Part shown: positions 3,372-30,124 of the stretch, piece by piece | How positions within the stretch are numbered: position 1 is the stretch's first letter | Layout: every line of letters begins with the position of its first letter | Source of the DNA: Candidatus Odinarchaeota archaeon | Lineage (GTDB): Archaea; Asgardarchaeota; Odinarchaeia; Odinarchaeales; Odinarchaeaceae | Length of the DNA: 32,000 nucleotides | Assembly: GCA_016839265.1 (NCBI GenBank) | Contig: JAEOUO010000002.1 | Location: 30,001-62,000 of the forward strand | Reading direction: 5' to 3' | Position numbers and translations under genes: made by a program | The notes under the pieces: model-generated | What the model was told of the DNA's origin: nothing | What the model saw: only the letters and a program-made list of their open reading frames with translations | The model's database searches: none

Positions 3372-4970
3372 ATGGAAACTGACATGGATAGACTACCGGT
3401 TACGGAGAAAAAAGATACCAAACTCCAGCTTATCGGGCGATTTCTATCTTATAGTATTCTCGCCAACGGCCCGTGGCTTCTAGTAATAGTCTGCTCAAGT
3501 CTCGCCGGATATTATATAGCCGCAGCTCTTCTCCCTTCTGAGAGAGCTACCCTAGGTCTTATAATAAGTTTAGCTACTCCTCTAAGTTTAATTTCAACAG
3601 CCGGTCTCCAAGCTTTAGAAACTAAAATAGTTTTAGATAAAATCGCTATCGGCGATAATAAAACAGCCGGAAGATTCACTCTAAAAATATACGCGCTTAC
3701 AGGTGTACTCTGTTTAATAGCGGCTGTTATAGCGTTAGGCGTTGAAAATATGCTTACAGGCAGCTTAACTAATAGTTTACTCTTCGCAGCTCAGTTTTCA
3801 GCTCTATCATTTTTATGGGTTGCAGTAGCTCCTATAATCGGGTTAAGAAAATTCGGTCAATTAACTGTGATATTCGCCACTGGAAGTGTTGTAGGATACG
3901 CTTTATCAGTGTTCGGTGCTTTAATGTTCGGTGTCGCAGGGGTTATCGGCTTTCAAAGTCTAGGATTCTTCTCAGCTTCAATTGGCACCTTCATATATCT
4001 TAATATTATATTAAAAAGCGGTAAAAATGTGGCAGCAGAGCTAGCTGCTAGAAGAGTCGCCCTCTTCAAAATATTAGAAGATATAAGAACCCGCTTCGAG
4101 AAAGGGGAATTATTCATAGATGAATATCAGAGGCTTGTTAAAGAATTCGGTCAACTTTTAATGAAAATAGAACATGATATTAGCGAAGTTAAAAATCTTG
4201 GAAAACAAGGTGAGGTAACCGTAATAGGCAGTTTCAAAAACTTCATCACCTTATTTTTAGCGAACATGTTATATTTCGCCGCTCTCTGGGCCGACCGCTT
4301 CTTCGTCTGGTTTGTATCCGGGCAGGCTACCGCCGGCTTATTTTTAGCGTTTAATACCTTCTATGAAACCGGTATAAACATAGCTCAGTGGATTCTAATC
4401 CCAGGTGTTGGATTAGTCGCTGTTCTAATGGAGTTGTTCACACCTAACTTTCAAAAAGCCGTGTCAGGAACCTATAAAGATCCGCTGCCAACTTTAGAAA
4501 AAAGCTTAAAAGATTTTTATAAATTCTTTAGAAAACTAGTATTAACGTCGATTTTAGTTATATTCGCATTCACAATTCTGTTAAACATCTTCGGTGAAAA
4601 CATTCTCTCTATTTTCCTTGATTTAACCGATCCTTTAACTCCTACTATTACAATACTCGGATTCACCATGCCCGCGGCTTTATTCGTGTTTAGAATGGCC
4701 ACGATAGGCGTAATCTTTCATACAGCTACAATTCTCTGTTATTTAGGTTTAATGTATCTTGAACAACACTCATTAAACGTGTGGCTTATGCTCTTAATAT
4801 TTATGGCGAATATCGTCTTATGCCCGCTTCTAACTATTATAAGCGGATCAGTTTACCTAGCCGTATTAGGTTACGTTGCAGCGTTCATAATCGGTACCGT
4901 GATAGGGTTACAGCTTGTGAAAAAGAATGTCATGGAATTCCCGTATAAAGCTTATTCAACTCTTCTTTAG
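3372..4970 (+). CDS. pelG: PelG-family polysaccharide exporter (MOP/MATE-like fold) with an internal soluble insertion
   Basis: About 12-13 TM segments. PelG-like motifs recognised from memory: SYSILANGPWLL (cf. AGIISSGPWVL), LYFAALWADRFFVWF (cf. FYNLGIWIDKFMFW), FRMATIGVIFH, and C-terminal LGYVAAF...EFPYKAY. Adjacent to pelF. Confidence 0.8.
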   Translation: METDMDRLPVTEKKDTKLQLIGRFLSYSILANGPWLLVIVCSSLAGYYIAAALLPSERATLGLIISLATPLSLISTAGLQALETKIVLDKIAIGDNKTAGRFTLKIYALTGVLCLIAAVIALGVENMLTGSLTNSLLFAAQFSALSFLWVAVAPIIGLRKFGQLTVIFATGSVVGYALSVFGALMFGVAGVIGFQSLGFFSASIGTFIYLNIILKSGKNVAAELAARRVALFKILEDIRTRFEKGELFIDEYQRLVKEFGQLLMKIEHDISEVKNLGKQGEVTVIGSFKNFITLFLANMLYFAALWADRFFVWFVSGQATAGLFLAFNTFYETGINIAQWILIPGVGLVAVLMELFTPNFQKAVSGTYKDPLPTLEKSLKDFYKFFRKLVLTSILVIFAFTILLNIFGENILSIFLDLTDPLTPTITILGFTMPAALFVFRMATIGVIFHTATILCYLGLMYLEQHSLNVWLMLLIFMANIVLCPLLTIISGSVYLAVLGYVAAFIIGTVIGLQLVKKNVMEFPYKAYSTLL

Positions 4971-4980
4971 GTGAATAAAT

Positions 4981-5466
4981 ATGGAGGAAATAGGTGAAAA
5001 CCTTAAACGACTTAAAAAAGAGGTTTTAAACCTGTTAATAGGACAATCAGAGGACAGATACCTTTCTAAAACCGAGGTTATAAAAGAGCTTGAGAAACCA
5101 TTGATAAATATCCAAGAGAAGATCCCTGAAAACCTTTTCAAACCGGTTAACACCCAACTAACCGGTAAACTAACTTTATCTGAAAATGATTTAAAAGAGT
5201 TCCTAGCAGTTTTAAGCTGGTTTAAAACAGACACTGAGAAAATAGGTTTCTCCACCCCGGAGCCTGAGGTATACTATGTTCACTATGATCCATCTGATCC
5301 TGTTGCTAAAAACATTATCGACACTTTTTTCGATTTATTCACAGCTAAATTTGCTAGGATGAGCGTGCGACAGAAAATTGAGTTAAGTGAAAAGAGTAAA
5401 TGGAAGTGGAGTGACGTATTAAAGATGTTAGAGGAAGGGCTTAAAACTGAGGGGAAACCAACTTAA
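4981..5466 (+). CDS. Hypothetical soluble protein (161 aa)
   Basis: RBS AGGTGA, 10 nt after the pelG stop; composition typical of the genome; no recognisable family. Confidence 0.75.
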   Translation: MEEIGENLKRLKKEVLNLLIGQSEDRYLSKTEVIKELEKPLINIQEKIPENLFKPVNTQLTGKLTLSENDLKEFLAVLSWFKTDTEKIGFSTPEPEVYYVHYDPSDPVAKNIIDTFFDLFTAKFARMSVRQKIELSEKSKWKWSDVLKMLEEGLKTEGKPT

Positions 5467-5480
5467 AGATGTGATACGAG

Positions 5481-6758
5481 ATGAATCAGGATAACTCAAA
5501 GCCGGTTTTCGACGAACTTGAAGAAGATATATTAAACGTTCTTGACGAGCGGCTTATCAAATTCGGTGAGAAATTGAAACAATTAAAGAATCCTCTTATA
5601 AATCAATTCGATAATGTTAGACTGAAATTTGTTGTTCCCTTAATCTCCTCCTCTTATGATAAATTAATAGATGAAAACTTTGAAGATCTCAAAAACGAGT
5701 TTAAAACTGAAATTAAAGAGTCTTTAAACTATTTAATGCAGAATATACGAGATAAATTTTCAAGTAAAATGCAGGAAATCAGTGAAACATTTGATAGAAT
5801 CATTGAAGAACAGAAAGAGAATGTTAAGCGCTTAGATTATGAAAAGAAAAATCTGGAGGGAAAACTTGCCTCTCTCAGTACTGAACTAGAAAATAGAGAT
5901 AAATTAATTAAAGATTACACCGCGCAGATTAGTGAATTAAAGAAAACTGTTTTTGAAAAAGATTCTCTCTCTAAAGACTATCTTGATTTAAGAAGAAAAT
6001 TCGAAGACTTAAATAGAGACTACTCCTCCCTTCAAGAAGAGAAGCTTAATCTTGAGACCCAGGTTAAAACTCTAAGCCGCCAGAATGAATCTTACAAAAC
6101 TGAATTAACTGAGTTGAATCTTAAACTTAAAAATATAGAAGATAAATTGAAGTCAACTCAAACACAGTTAGCGGAAACCCGGTCGGAGAATATTTTTCTG
6201 GCAACTAAACTTAATGAGCTTAAATCCTCTTTAACAGAAAAACCAAGAGGAGAAGGGGTAATGGATACTGCTAAAATTAAAGCAGAGATTAAAATATTAC
6301 AGGATACGTTAACCCAGAAAAATAGTCAAATCTCCGAGCTTGAGAATAAAATTTTAAAACTCAGCGAGGAGAACTCTAATCTGAAAAATGTTCGTGAACA
6401 GGATAAAGCAAGAATTGAGCAATTAGAATCTGAGTTACAACATTGCAAAGCAGATTTAAACCGGCTATCTGAATATGATAGAAAATTGAATCAGCTTCAA
6501 ATGGAGTACACTGAATTGAAAAAAATAAACTCTAAACAGAAAGAGGAATTGGATAGATTTGATAAACTTAAAAAAATTCTCAGCGCTGAGCCTAAATTTA
6601 AAATTCTCCAGATATTAGAATCAGTTAACGAGGTTTCAATAGATGCGTTGAATACAGCTATAGGCTACACGCCTATAATGACTAAAAAGATTATAAACGA
6701 ATTAGTGGAAGCGGGTATAGTTGAAGTGAACGGGGGTAATGTGAAGCTTAAACGTTAA
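5481..6758 (+). CDS. Long coiled-coil protein with a C-terminal winged-helix-like domain
   Basis: About 250 aa of E/K/L-rich heptad sequence (approx. residues 110-365). C-terminal KFKILQILESVNEVSIDALNTAIGYTPIMTKKIINELVEAGIVEV follows a wHTH pattern. Confidence 0.8.
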   Translation: MNQDNSKPVFDELEEDILNVLDERLIKFGEKLKQLKNPLINQFDNVRLKFVVPLISSSYDKLIDENFEDLKNEFKTEIKESLNYLMQNIRDKFSSKMQEISETFDRIIEEQKENVKRLDYEKKNLEGKLASLSTELENRDKLIKDYTAQISELKKTVFEKDSLSKDYLDLRRKFEDLNRDYSSLQEEKLNLETQVKTLSRQNESYKTELTELNLKLKNIEDKLKSTQTQLAETRSENIFLATKLNELKSSLTEKPRGEGVMDTAKIKAEIKILQDTLTQKNSQISELENKILKLSEENSNLKNVREQDKARIEQLESELQHCKADLNRLSEYDRKLNQLQMEYTELKKINSKQKEELDRFDKLKKILSAEPKFKILQILESVNEVSIDALNTAIGYTPIMTKKIINELVEAGIVEVNGGNVKLKR

Positions 6759-6824
6759 AAAATAATCTTAATATATTATATATTTTAAATCACTTTTTAC
6801 TTAATTAAATGCGGGGTAGTTGTT

Positions 6825-8426
6825 TTGACACATCAAGCTAAAATCGTATTAACATCGGATAGAAGCCTCCTTACAACTTACGGTAATAACCTCTATATGG
6901 GTTTAGCTGCTTCTCTTCCAACTAATGTATGCCCTGACTCACTTTATTACTCTTTGCTATGCCCGCCTGTGCCTTCAAATCCTGATGGAACAGTTAGCAT
7001 GGCTACACCTGCTTTAACGACAGCTGAATCTATAATAGTTAATAGAGCTGGTATCCCCCGGGAGAAGGTGAAAATAGCTCATCCAGATTTTTTAACGAAG
7101 GTAGTCACAGCGGAGACTAAGATTTTAGCTATATCCGTTATGGATCCCTTAGGTTTAGGCCCGTCAACGACAACGTGGAGTACTCTTTTCTCCGGTATAC
7201 CGCATACTAGAGTTGAATTTCTTAGATTAATGTTCGGTCCTGTTCGTGAATTAAAAGAAAAATATGGTTTAAAAATCGTGGTCGGAGGGCCTGGAGCTTG
7301 GCAGATAAATCGTATAAGTGTAGCTGATAAACTTGGAATAGACTATCTTCTAATTAATGAGGCAGAGTATACGATTCCAAAAGTTTTCAGCGCTATCTTA
7401 GACGGGGCGGAATATGAGGAGCGGGTGGTATACGGGTCTGTGGCTAAACCGGAGGATGTTCCCCCCGTTCTCACTCCATCCGTATTCGGATTAGTTGAGG
7501 TTGCTAGAGGATGCGGTCGCGGCTGCAAGTTTTGTGTTCCAGCCACGAGCGGTAAAATGAGAATGATGCCGCTGGAGAAAATTCTAAACGATATTAAAGT
7601 TCATGTTAGTGCAGGCTTTAAAGCAATTACATTTCATGCAGATGACACTTTACGCTACGGGTCTAAAAATTTTCTAATAGATGAGGACGCTCTATTCACT
7701 TTATATAAGGAGGGGTTTAAAACAGGTGTGAAAGAAATCTTCATTACACATTCATGTCTTTCCCCGTTTGTATGTCAACCTGATGTAATAGCGAAACTTA
7801 CCCGGCTTTTAAGAAAACACGGGCATAAATATTACGGTTGTCAACCTGGAATAGAAACCGGTAGTCCACGTCTTATGAAGTTGCATATGGCGGGTAAACC
7901 TGCTCCATGTAAACCTGAAGAGTGGCCGGAAGTTGTTCAAGAAGCTCATAAAGTTATGTGGGAGAATAAATGGGTTTCAGTTGGAACGCTTATGATGGGT
8001 TTACCTGGTGAAGAAAAAGAGGATGTTATTCAAACAATTGATTTAATAAAAAGTTTAAGCGAATACCCGTCTCTATTTGTTCCATTGTTTTTCGTCCCCA
8101 TGGAGTTTACGACTCTTAAAGGTATGAAAGCTTTTATTTCAGGATACATGTCTAAAGAACACTGGCAGCTTTTATTAGCATGTTGGAAACATAATGCAAG
8201 ATACATTGAGCCTTTATATCAGTTAACAACTGAACAACACAATTTTATTTCAGGGATCGGTATAACTGTTCTCACACGTTTAATGACGTTCTTCCTTGAT
8301 CAAAAAGAGAAAGAATTAGAAGGTAAAAGCCGTCTGATGAGGGTGGCTTCACATATATTCGCCAATAAGCTTAGTAGAACCACTCGATCAGAGGAGAATA
8401 TAATCCAGAAAGCATATAAAGTATAA
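6825..8426 (+). CDS. B12-binding-domain radical SAM enzyme, Grs/Gms-like (archaeal tetraether lipid modification family)
   Basis: CxxxCxxC motif (CGRGCKFC, 7512-7535), cobalamin-domain motif KIVVGGPGAWQ and GIETGS. Family-type motifs IVLTSDRS..T.Y, DPLGLGP and GKP.P..PEEW resemble Sulfolobus GrsA/B as remembered. Radical SAM is secure; the specific function is inferred. Confidence 0.8.
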   Translation: MTHQAKIVLTSDRSLLTTYGNNLYMGLAASLPTNVCPDSLYYSLLCPPVPSNPDGTVSMATPALTTAESIIVNRAGIPREKVKIAHPDFLTKVVTAETKILAISVMDPLGLGPSTTTWSTLFSGIPHTRVEFLRLMFGPVRELKEKYGLKIVVGGPGAWQINRISVADKLGIDYLLINEAEYTIPKVFSAILDGAEYEERVVYGSVAKPEDVPPVLTPSVFGLVEVARGCGRGCKFCVPATSGKMRMMPLEKILNDIKVHVSAGFKAITFHADDTLRYGSKNFLIDEDALFTLYKEGFKTGVKEIFITHSCLSPFVCQPDVIAKLTRLLRKHGHKYYGCQPGIETGSPRLMKLHMAGKPAPCKPEEWPEVVQEAHKVMWENKWVSVGTLMMGLPGEEKEDVIQTIDLIKSLSEYPSLFVPLFFVPMEFTTLKGMKAFISGYMSKEHWQLLLACWKHNARYIEPLYQLTTEQHNFISGIGITVLTRLMTFFLDQKEKELEGKSRLMRVASHIFANKLSRTTRSEENIIQKAYKV

Positions 8427-8452
8427 TATTAACTGCTAAAAAAGGTGGTTTA

Positions 8453-8935
8453 ATGACTAGAAAACTAGTTGTCTTTTATTCAAGAACTGGTAAAACAAAA
8501 ACTATCTCTGAAAGAATATCCGAATTATTAAACTGTGATTTAGAGGAGATAGTTGACCTTAAAAAACGGACAGGTATTATAGGTTTTTTAAAAGCAGGTA
8601 AAGATGCATTTCTGAAAAAGAAAACTAGTATAAGAGAACCTGTCAAAACCCCTAGTGAATACGATCTGCTATTAATAGGCTCCCCAGTGTGGGCGGGAAG
8701 TCTCCCTCCAGCTATAAGAACATATATTACTTATTTTAAAAATCAGCTTCCAAAACTAGCGTTAATAGGAACATGTAGCGGTAAAGGAAACGTTTCTAAA
8801 ATAGCTGTTGAAATAGAAAAAATCTCCGATAAAAAGCTTTCCGCTGTAATCGAAGTTACCTCCAAAGAGGTTTCTAAAAACAAATATGAGAATAAAATTC
8901 AAGATTTTATAAATGAATTAAAAAATATCCAATAA
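8453..8935 (+). CDS. Flavodoxin family protein
   Basis: LVVFYSRTGKTKTISERI FMN phosphate loop, YDLLLIGSPVWAG, and a size of 160 aa. Confidence 0.9.
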   Translation: MTRKLVVFYSRTGKTKTISERISELLNCDLEEIVDLKKRTGIIGFLKAGKDAFLKKKTSIREPVKTPSEYDLLLIGSPVWAGSLPPAIRTYITYFKNQLPKLALIGTCSGKGNVSKIAVEIEKISDKKLSAVIEVTSKEVSKNKYENKIQDFINELKNIQ

Positions 8936-8962
8936 AAAATTTAGAAATATTAAAATTACATG

Positions 8963-9517
8963 CTACGAGTAAATCTCTAACTCTGTGAGCATTTTATCAA
9001 GTTTGTTAACCGCTTCTTGAACATCAGTCTCTTTCTTAGCTCCTGTACACACGATTCTACCGGAACAGAATAATAGAAAAACAACTTTAGGATATTTAGC
9101 TCTGTATATTAATCCTGGAAACTGCTCCGGCTCGTAGAGAGCGTCTTCAAGTGTAAGTGAAGCCACTTCTAAATCCAATCTAGCGCCTAAATTCCCTGAA
9201 GCTACAATGTTTTGAATCTGAATTTTAGGCTCGCTTTTAATATCTATACCCGCGTTTTTAATTTTCTCGATGACTTTAGAAACTACAGTCGGCGCATCCT
9301 CTTCACCTCTGAGGCCTGTAACCACCATTTTACCTGTATTAAAGACGAGTATGGCCGCCTTAGGATCTGTTAAGCGCAGGACTAAACCCGGAAACTGTGA
9401 TGGGTCATACTCTGCTTCCGAAATATTATTTGAAAGCTTATTAAGGTCAATTCTATCCTCTAAACTTACTGATGCTACCACGTTCTCAACTTTATATGTT
9501 ATCTCTCTTTTACTCAT
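8963..9517 (-). CDS. tbp: TATA-box-binding protein
   Basis: Two TBP repeats: VENVVAS...YDPSQFPGLVLRL...FNTGKMVVTG and IQNIVAS...YEPEQFPGLIYR...FCSGRIVCTGAK. Confidence 0.98.
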   Translation of the reverse strand: MSKREITYKVENVVASVSLEDRIDLNKLSNNISEAEYDPSQFPGLVLRLTDPKAAILVFNTGKMVVTGLRGEEDAPTVVSKVIEKIKNAGIDIKSEPKIQIQNIVASGNLGARLDLEVASLTLEDALYEPEQFPGLIYRAKYPKVVFLLFCSGRIVCTGAKKETDVQEAVNKLDKMLTELEIYS

Positions 9518-11006: not shown

Positions 11007-12024
11007 TTAAATCCATTTTTTCATTCTAAAATATAAGAGCATAGTAACAGTGACAGCTATCATAACGATTAATATCAGCGGATAACCCTATATAAACTCT
11101 AGCTCAGCCATGAATTTAAAATTCATACCGTAAACGTCTGCGATAAAAAGTTAAAGGAATGAATATTGTAGCTATTAGGGTTAATATTTTCATAACTTCG
11201 TTTGTTCTGTTACTTATGTTTGAAAGACATGTGTCAACCATGCTGGATAATACTTCCTGTAATGTTTCTATTAAATCTATTATTTGAATAATATGATCGT
11301 GGATGTCTCTCAGATATATTACCGTTTTCTGTGATGTGAATGGTGTTCCTATCCTTAATAACCTGTTCAAAATTTCTCTGAGAGGCCATGTAATTTTTCT
11401 TATAAATATCATCTGTCTTTTTAAACTGTTAATTTCGTTGACTGTTTTCTGAGACGGGTTGACTAGTAATCCATCATCTATGTTCGATTCATCTTCAAGT
11501 ATGCCACAAATATTGAGGTAGTTATCCTCGATTGAATCTATCATGGATGTTAGTAAAAAATTAGCCCCCGTTCCTTTTATTAAACATCTATTATATTTTA
11601 TAGTTTCCTTTATACTCTCGAATGCATCTTCTTTTCTTTCTTGAAATGGCATTACATAATCTTTACCTAAAATGAAGCTTATCTGTTCTACTATTATCTT
11701 CTCATCTTCTAGACTGTAATGAAGCATTTTAACAATAACATAAACATGGTTTTCAAGAATTTGATTTTAGGTCTTTGATCAATGTTAATTATATCTTCTA
11801 ATAGTTTGGTGGACTTCGTATATTTTACCAATCTGGTTGATAAGCCTACTATTGTTTCACGTGTACACGTTTATCCATGTGGCTACTGTATTTTTTCTGT
11901 CTGTTTTCAATTCACATATGTCAGATGGCTCTATATCGGAGAATTCTTTGTTATTATATTCTACTACATGGATTCTATTTTTATTATCTGGATTATCTCT
12001 TAGTGGGGTTATGTTTTCGCTCAT
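11007..12024 (-). pseudogene. corA: Magnesium/cobalt transporter CorA, pseudogene
   Basis: A full CorA can be reconstructed from ATG 12024: RIHVVEYNNKEF, TWINVYT*NN (TGA 11859-11857), YEVH / LLEDIINIDQRPKI (frameshift near 11806), F/ENHVYVIVKML (frameshift near 11756), IATIFIPLTF / IADVYGMNFKFM (extra T in the run at 11145-11149), ELEFI*GYP (TAG 11090-11088), ending MKKWI* at 11007. Confidence 0.92.
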
Positions 12025-29284: not shown

Positions 29285-30124
29285 ATGAGTTTTTTTAAAA
29301 AATACGTTTACACTCTTCACAGCAATGATGCGGCTCCAATGCTTCCTTTAATAGATGTCACTAAAACCTACGGTTTTAATTTCGCGTGTATTCCTGTTCC
29401 TTTAAGAGTTGACAAGATTATTAACGGGGATTTAACAACGTTTATTACACCTGATAAAAATATAAGTATAAATGTATCCGGTAAATTCTACACGCTTAAT
29501 ATTCTGAAACTAGTGGAAGAGGTGGCTTCTCTTTTAATTCAGTGGAGTAAAAATATTGTTAAATCTAGGTTTAACAGAGATTTGCCACGTGAACGTTTAA
29601 CCTTATGGTTAACTAAATCTTTAAACGCGAAAATATTGGTGCCGACATTATCTGAGGATGCTGGTGATTTTATAAAAAATTATTTTGAAACAGTTCTATT
29701 ATCTTATTTTAAAAAAACTGATTTAATTGAAGCTTTAAAATCTTATTTACATTATATAATTGATAAAACTAAAAAGCGTATTTCTAGTAATAAGTTAAAG
29801 GTTTCAATTGAACAAGTTTATGTGAATTACCCTATTTTAGATGAAGATATAACTGAAGAGGATTATCTTAATCCTGATGTGAAAGGAGTTACTATACCTG
29901 TAGATGTTTATTTAAATAATAAATTGAAGCAGATGAATTTCCGACCATTTCTAATATATCAGGATTTGCTGGAGACTGCTACGTATACATTAAAGAGAAT
30001 AGAGGGATCAGAGTTAGTTACTCCAATGGATTTAATAGAGAAGCGAATAATAAATATTTTTGATGATGATAAATCTCAGGGAGAAGCTGATTTATCCACT
30101 CTTATAAATCATTTCACATTATAG
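29285..30124 (+). CDS. Hypothetical soluble protein (279 aa)
   Basis: Long ORF with a GTGG RBS, tightly packed in the operon; no family recognised. Confidence 0.75.
   Translation: MSFFKKYVYTLHSNDAAPMLPLIDVTKTYGFNFACIPVPLRVDKIINGDLTTFITPDKNISINVSGKFYTLNILKLVEEVASLLIQWSKNIVKSRFNRDLPRERLTLWLTKSLNAKILVPTLSEDAGDFIKNYFETVLLSYFKKTDLIEALKSYLHYIIDKTKKRISSNKLKVSIEQVYVNYPILDEDITEEDYLNPDVKGVTIPVDVYLNNKLKQMNFRPFLIYQDLLETATYTLKRIEGSELVTPMDLIEKRIINIFDDDKSQGEADLSTLINHFTL

Follow-up and report, generated by a model that had tools for sequence, protein, structure and literature searches.

A Grs-family radical SAM gene followed by a flavodoxin gene in an oil-field Odinarchaeon

Does the Odinarchaeon represented by GenBank contig JAEOUO010000002.1 carry an enzyme that cyclizes or cross-links its tetraether lipids, and is the flavodoxin encoded directly behind that enzyme its dedicated reductant? 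These questions are raised by two adjacent genes in a 32,000-nucleotide (nt) stretch of the contig, positions 30,001 to 62,000 (G000:C2:30001-62000; hereafter the window), which belongs to a genome of 1.35 Mb that is 97% complete. The first gene encodes a 533-amino-acid radical S-adenosylmethionine (SAM) enzyme, and the second encodes a 160-amino-acid flavodoxin. An earlier note, made from the sequence, related the enzyme both to GrsA and GrsB, the synthases that form rings in glycerol dialkyl glycerol tetraethers (GDGT), and to Gms, which makes the cross-link of glycerol monoalkyl glycerol tetraethers (GMGT). We find that membership of the enzyme in the Grs homologue family is well supported, although indirectly, and that its pairing with the flavodoxin lacks the conservation that would justify treating the two genes as a system.

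Kinship with Grs is borne out at the family level by the lengths of published genes. Table S3 of PMC13109099, which re-lists the Grs homologues of Zeng 2019, gives four genes for Candidatus Odinarchaeota archaeon LCB_4, a sister species, of 1491 bp (496 amino acids), 1542 bp (513 amino acids), 1587 bp (528 amino acids), and 1602 bp (533 amino acids). The published criterion for a Grs homologue is a BLASTP E value of <1e-20 against S. acidocaldarius GrsA/GrsB and a length of at least 400 amino acids. G006, a closed, single-contig genome of the same genus that is LCB_4-like, has four members of the family to which our enzyme belongs, and their open reading frames (ORFs), read from the first start, are exactly 496, 513, 528, and 533 amino acids long. 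The 533-amino-acid enzyme from the window is 92% identical to the 533-amino-acid member from G006. The classical PF02310 radical SAM proteins of the window's own genome are 505, 476, 452, and 390 amino acids long, lengths that do not fit the listed genes. Independently, LCB_4 appears in Data File 1 of the Garcia 2023 preprint among the genomes that encode GrsA, GrsB, and Hbs (Gms) but not Gmm. Based on the agreement between the LCB_4 lengths in Table S3 and the G006 lengths, together with the Garcia 2023 listing, we place the enzyme in the Grs homologue family.

The family is discrete, with 151 clusters (at 50% identity) retrieved at an E value of ≤1e-30 and 376 at 1e-10. With the exception of Geoglobus ahangari, the homologues and cluster members returned carry the names of metagenome-assembled genomes (for the nearest proteins, Odinarchaeia or Odinarchaeum), the ESM Atlas matches of the enzyme have generic names, and a tblastn search against plasmids found nothing. 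The preprint supplement gives deletion primers for saci_1585 and saci_0240, and an exact search of the genome and metagenome contigs with them gave no match; the primer table contradicts itself in two of three overlaps and may contain typing errors. Since Grs homologues in Odinarchaeum have already been published for LCB_4, the main inference is not new, and we regard the 533-amino-acid enzyme as an unexceptional addition to a family already known.

The predicted structure of the enzyme points the same way. All of the motifs quoted in the earlier note are present and in the order it gave: IVLTSD, DPLGLGP, KIVVGGPGAW, GLVEVARGCGRGCKFC, DDTLRYG, and GIETGS...MAGKPAPCKPEEW. Pfam detects PF04055 alone in the protein, and among NCBIfam models even the top matches fall well short of the cutoffs (TIGR04013, 73 bits, and MiaB/RimO, 57 bits, both against 251 bits). 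The AlphaFold2 model, for which 64 homologues were used, has a predicted local distance difference test score (pLDDT) of 92.4 and a predicted template modeling score (pTM) of 0.91 and consists of a Rossmann-like N-terminal domain, a radical SAM barrel, and four C-terminal helices at residues 444 to 531. Among 64 aligned family members, C230, C234, and C237 are the sole invariant cysteines, which gives one CX3CX2C [4Fe-4S] site and no conserved cysteine for an auxiliary cluster; the catalytic-core motifs are conserved across the family alignment. Two papers on models of GrsA and GrsB describe a single cluster with no auxiliary one and a fold made up of a Rossmann-fold-like N-terminal domain, a partial TIM barrel, and C-terminal helices, and we count the agreement of our model with these descriptions in favor of the Grs assignment. 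A search of the PDB found no Grs structure; the top whole-chain Foldseek matches are MgmA (9ccb), MiaB, RimO, TsrM, AprD4, CysS, TokK, and OxsB, with template modeling (TM) scores of ~0.5. The "B12 domain" that the earlier note had assigned to the enzyme stands only in part: the model has a Rossmann-like N-terminal domain and matches the fold of cobalamin radical SAM enzymes, but the protein has no match to the B12-binding family PF02310.

A lipid enzyme of this type would act on tetraethers, and the earlier note had named a genome lacking tetraether synthase (Tes) as grounds for abandoning its proposal. The window's own genome does encode Tes (NF045702, 678.8 bits; cutoff, 450 bits). The Grs-type family occurs in 29 of 61 Asgard genomes, and 24 of these 29 have Tes above the cutoff; of the five that do not, four are 76 to 81% complete and one is 93% complete. 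No member of the Grs-type family was found in the three Tes-less Asgard families sampled. This co-occurrence is a weak signal, since genomes of related organisms do not count as independent observations. A gene of the same clade as the target and a Tes gene (595.9 bits) are divergently arranged on one metagenome contig (L067).

Other candidate lipid genes are present in this and other genomes. At 13.4 kb past the end of the window is a 522-amino-acid radical SAM gene of the AhbD/NirJ-like SPASM type, whose product is extended by ~125 amino acids at its N terminus (G000:C2:75396-76964, reverse strand; L003:805-2370:-). From its sequence it is probably the GMGT synthase (Gms/Hbs), an identity that fits the listing of LCB_4 as an Hbs encoder. 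At four other loci (L063 [G032:C11], L114, L090, and L072), a Gms candidate adjoins or overlaps a par2-type Grs-family gene, an arrangement similar to that of a gms-grs cluster published from Thermococcus guaymasensis. In another Asgard family (f12; L059 and L061 in G026 and G036), genes for a CDP-alcohol phosphatidyltransferase, a target-clade enzyme, an FrhB/FdhB-like FeS flavoprotein, and a PF02310 B12 radical SAM protein follow one another in that order with gaps of 26 to 27 nt, possibly as a lipid-tailoring operon with its own redox protein.

We consider it probable, with moderate confidence, that the 533-amino-acid protein, one of three Grs-family paralogues of this organism, forms C-C bonds in tetraether tails, as the family suggests, and that the flavodoxin is a general electron carrier. 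By analogy with the family, the single [4Fe-4S] cluster on C230, C234, and C237 would cleave SAM to yield a 5'-deoxyadenosyl radical. This radical would abstract hydrogen from a saturated biphytanyl chain of a tetraether lipid, presumably the product of Tes and a probable substrate of cross-linking by Gms, and the most likely outcome would be a cyclopentane ring closed by an intramolecular C-C bond. The N-terminal Rossmann-like domain possibly holds cobalamin. The cluster would be reduced by a low-potential carrier, and in this genus the single stand-alone flavodoxin of the genome, whose gene is probably co-transcribed with that of the enzyme, could serve. Our data show the gene structure, the fold, the paralogy, the co-occurrence with Tes, the limits of the synteny, and, indirectly, the family membership; we infer the substrate, the ring chemistry, the cobalamin, and the transfer of electrons from the flavodoxin.

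Six points weigh against this reading. The Grs anchor is a set of gene lengths in a published table rather than an alignment with GrsA or GrsB. PF02310 is not detected in the protein. Homologous lipid enzymes of the B12-type radical SAM class methylate or desaturate rather than cyclize. In the literature searched, no lipid data for any Odinarchaeon were found. The last two points come from the phylogeny and from the N-terminal domain. In FastTree trees of 134 and 154 family sequences, the other three Odinarchaeal paralogues are across the deepest (midpoint) split from the clade of the target, and this clade has ATPALTTAE or L.LR[AT]VE in its N-terminal domain where most family members have AP.GLRK[IV]EA.

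The target clade is well supported and mostly Asgard (Odin, Thor, Hel, Prometheo, and Hod), with side branches from Bathyarchaeia and DPANN. The three paralogues of the window's own genome, which are 35 to 38% identical to one another, fall into three separate deep clades. The fourth type found in G006, of 496 amino acids, is missing from this genome and groups with Geoglobus ahangari in the tree. The family also includes bacterial clades (Kiritimatiellota, Phycisphaerae, and Bryobacteraceae). By sequence, Asgard archaea hold a distinct, uncharacterized Grs clade, and this is the sole part of our results with some novelty.

The changed N-terminal motif means that the chemistry of the target may differ, and the alternative that best survives is that the enzyme belongs to the same family but does something else, the Asgard-rich clade having acquired a new function on tetraether or diether tails, such as closing the ring elsewhere, cyclizing GMGT, introducing double bonds, or cross-linking in a different way. 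We regard this as possible, although clearly less probable than ring formation of the known kind. The deep separation of the clade would fit it, as would the altered motif, and the presence of three to four paralogues per Odinarchaeal genome would imply a division of labor. Related B12-type lipid radical SAM enzymes have methylase and desaturase activities, and a published note places a Lokiarchaeial homologue outside the canonical grs clades. However, the characterized members named in the literature examined (GrsA, GrsB, TK0167, and Cmaq_1853) are all ring synthases, and the motifs of the catalytic core are conserved.

A bolder version of this idea is that the Asgard-rich clade, with its ATP.L(T/R)T(A/V)E motif, is a third functional Grs-like type with its own product (for example, a ring placed elsewhere or one formed on cross-linked GMGT), that it has recruited lineage-specific flavin partners (the flavodoxin in Odinarchaeum and the FrhB-like FeS flavoprotein in the other Asgard family), and that it possibly contributes to precursors of ARN acids. 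We think this unlikely. The published candidates for the source of ARN-acid precursors in crude oil are organisms with GrsA, GrsB, and Gms; if the third-type idea were true, an oil-field Odinarchaeon with Tes and Gms might add to the highly cyclized, cross-linked tetraethers that are the proposed precursors.

The genome is a second Odinarchaeum-like genome confirmed to carry the tetraether toolkit. It comes from oil-field samples and encodes Tes, three Grs-family proteins, and a probable Gms. This toolkit fits published predictions that Odinarchaeota can make cyclized, cross-linked tetraethers. The DNA at window positions 6700 to 9000 is present in oil-field metagenome runs from two studies, and some of these runs may be where it came from. 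The distinct Asgard Grs clade is a sensible target for expression studies.

The second question concerns the flavodoxin and depends on the arrangement of the two genes, the features of which are as follows.

6770..6789, forward strand: AT-rich box resembling a TATA element, located ahead of the radical SAM gene and read from the sequence; it may act as the promoter
6825..8426, forward strand: Grs-family radical SAM gene, 533 amino acids, 1602 bp, TTG start; assigned from PF04055, the paralogues, the length anchor, and the model
7512..7535, forward strand: codons of the CX3CX2C cluster motif (C230, C234, and C237)
8427..8452, forward strand: spacer of 26 nt, with GGTGG at 8444-8448, 4 nt ahead of the flavodoxin ATG, read from the sequence
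8453..8935, forward strand: short flavodoxin gene, 160 amino acids, ATG start; PF12724 and PF12682 above cutoff

The description in the earlier note of a 533-amino-acid radical SAM gene followed after 26 nt by a flavodoxin gene was confirmed, and both genes are real. The TTG start of the first gene is supported by a GGGGT at 6813-6817 (8 to 12 nt upstream of it), by conservation of the residues it adds across the paralogues and homologues of the enzyme, and by the LCB_4 orthologue WEU40416.1, which at 533 amino acids has the same length as the TTG-start product. The gene call of the assembly begins instead at an internal ATG (6897 rather than 6825) and gives a product of 509 amino acids that loses 24 conserved N-terminal residues. 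The 160-amino-acid protein matches PF12724 (36.7 bits; cutoff, 27 bits) and PF12682 (29.2 bits; cutoff, 24 bits), has an FMN-type phosphate loop (SRTGKT) at residues 10 to 15, and has flavodoxin-like proteins as its relatives in the PDB. Given the Shine-Dalgarno-like GGTGG in the spacer and the lack of any terminator-like site in a scan of positions 8427 to 8452, co-transcription of the two genes is plausible, and we consider it probable.

Conservation of the pair is restricted to one genus. The enzyme and flavodoxin genes are adjacent in all four genomes of the genus (g1), among which flavodoxin identity falls to 55 to 79%, and in none of the three genomes of the sister genus (g2). The sister-genus enzyme shares 63% identity with the target, and its gene still adjoins that for the TATA-binding protein, but the gene that follows it is an unrelated one of 183 amino acids with no Pfam match. 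The flavodoxin homologue of the sister genus (38 to 42% identical) is found directly after an aldehyde:ferredoxin oxidoreductase (AOR)-like gene and beside an SCP2-like gene (L053 and L054), a position that suggests a link of the flavodoxin to AOR and not to the radical SAM enzyme. At the other loci compared, 7 from Asgard genomes and 80 from metagenomes, no homologue of the flavodoxin was found within ~4 kb of the enzyme gene. The window's own genome has one stand-alone flavodoxin and one flavodoxin domain in a 401-amino-acid ORF, compared with ~28 radical SAM matches. S. acidocaldarius has working GrsA and GrsB, and its genome, searched as a control, has no match to PF12724 or PF00258.

The proposal of the earlier note that this flavodoxin is the dedicated reductant is therefore not supported: the adjacency is limited to one genus, the protein is the only stand-alone flavodoxin of its genome, and the Grs enzymes of S. 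acidocaldarius work in an organism without a match to either flavodoxin family searched. A narrower form of the proposal, in which the flavodoxin is the dedicated reductant at least in the genus Odinarchaeum and the two genes form a functional unit, is improbable in our estimation. It draws on the common strand, the 26-nt spacer with its GGTGG and without a terminator, the persistence of the adjacency in 4/4 genus genomes despite flavodoxin identity as low as 55%, and the unrelated FrhB-like flavin/FeS protein in the same downstream slot in another Asgard family. Set against these are the unrelated 183-amino-acid gene in that slot in the sister genus, where the flavodoxin is instead found after the AOR-like gene, the absence of a flavodoxin at the other Asgard and metagenome loci, the single stand-alone flavodoxin for so many radical SAM proteins, and the S. 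acidocaldarius control. Because the flavodoxin is a neighbor in one genus only, it is probably not a dedicated helper, and because an FrhB-like protein fills the same slot elsewhere, we keep the partner hypothesis alive at a low probability. The most economical reading is that the flavodoxin is a general low-potential carrier, co-transcribed here through local gene order.

Upstream of the pair, a PelG-like membrane protein (PF16933) is followed by a 161-amino-acid orphan and a 425-amino-acid coiled-coil protein with gaps of 10 and 14 nt (window positions 3372 to 6758, forward strand), a block that stops 66 nt ahead of the radical SAM gene and is kept across the genus. Downstream, the gene for the TATA-binding protein (8963 to 9517, reverse strand) is convergent with the flavodoxin gene, and it is the sole neighbor of the enzyme retained in both Odinarchaeia genera. 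Farther on, a 203-amino-acid ORF (11116 to 11727, reverse strand) ends abruptly after a hydrophobic stretch (IFIPLTFYRRRL...) and might be a truncated transporter-like gene.

The weakest alternative, that the protein is not a lipid enzyme at all but modifies RNA or protein as a radical SAM enzyme of the MiaB/RimO or MgmA kind, is very improbable: MgmA, MiaB, and RimO are its best NCBIfam, PDB sequence, and fold matches, but these reach only 57 to 73 bits against a cutoff of 251 bits and TM scores of only ~0.5, the protein lacks both a TRAM domain and a conserved triad of N-terminal cysteines, and both the lipid-gene neighbors and the link with Tes point the other way.

Comparison with known systems places these results as follows. 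Flavodoxin reduces the clusters of radical SAM enzymes, as in the E. coli flavodoxin system. Like that system, the pair described here involves a small FMN protein, encoded beside a radical SAM gene; unlike it, the linkage is not conserved, and the sister-genus homologue is by an AOR-like gene.

Among proteins of known structure, MgmA (PDB 9ccb), MiaB, RimO, TsrM, and TokK are the best two-domain matches of the enzyme (E values of 7e-15 to 1e-8; TM, ~0.5), but at 11 to 17% identity, and neither their substrate domains nor their auxiliary cluster ligands are shared. A MiaB/RimO methylthiotransferase was considered and rejected (TIGR00089, 57.4 bits against 251; no conserved N-terminal Cys triad; no TRAM match).

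The overlap between Gms/Hbs and the target goes no further than the radical SAM core and the class of substrate, tetraethers. Gms is a SPASM/twitch radical SAM enzyme with auxiliary clusters and an N-terminal COG4001 domain of its own, and the target, with PF04055 only and no conserved extra cysteine, was rejected as Gms/Hbs. Thus, the kinship with Gms that the earlier note had suggested is not supported, Gms being SPASM-type with its own N-terminal domain and a separate Gms candidate being present in the genome.

The Gmm/Cgm/Pgm methylases and the Ted desaturase likewise belong to the radical SAM enzymes, carry a B12-type domain at the N terminus, and modify inert GDGT/GMGT tails. They have been described as relatives of MoeK5-like methylases. 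A canonical B12 methylase of the Gmm/Cgm/Ted type was rejected as an identity for the target: there is no PF02310 match, and the PF02310 radical SAM proteins of the same genome, which match PF02310 at E values of 1e-12 to 1e-23, are found by BLAST with the Grs-type family at only 7e-7 to 8e-9, and with the target itself at only 1e-7 to 1e-9. For this comparison we take Gmm/Cgm/Ted-type enzymes to be canonical PF02310 proteins.

The closest known systems are GrsA (Saci_1585) and GrsB (Saci_0240) of Sulfolobus acidocaldarius, TK0167 (GrsA'), and Cmaq_1853 (GrsB'), which, by the LCB_4 lengths, are in the same published homologue set as the target. The target differs in its clade, whose members come mostly from Asgard archaea, and in its N-terminal motif, ATPALTTAE instead of AP.GLRK[IV]EA; its activity is a predicted one. 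Like GrsA and GrsB, it has one CX3CX2C cluster, a Rossmann-like N-terminal domain, C-terminal helices, and a co-occurring Tes.

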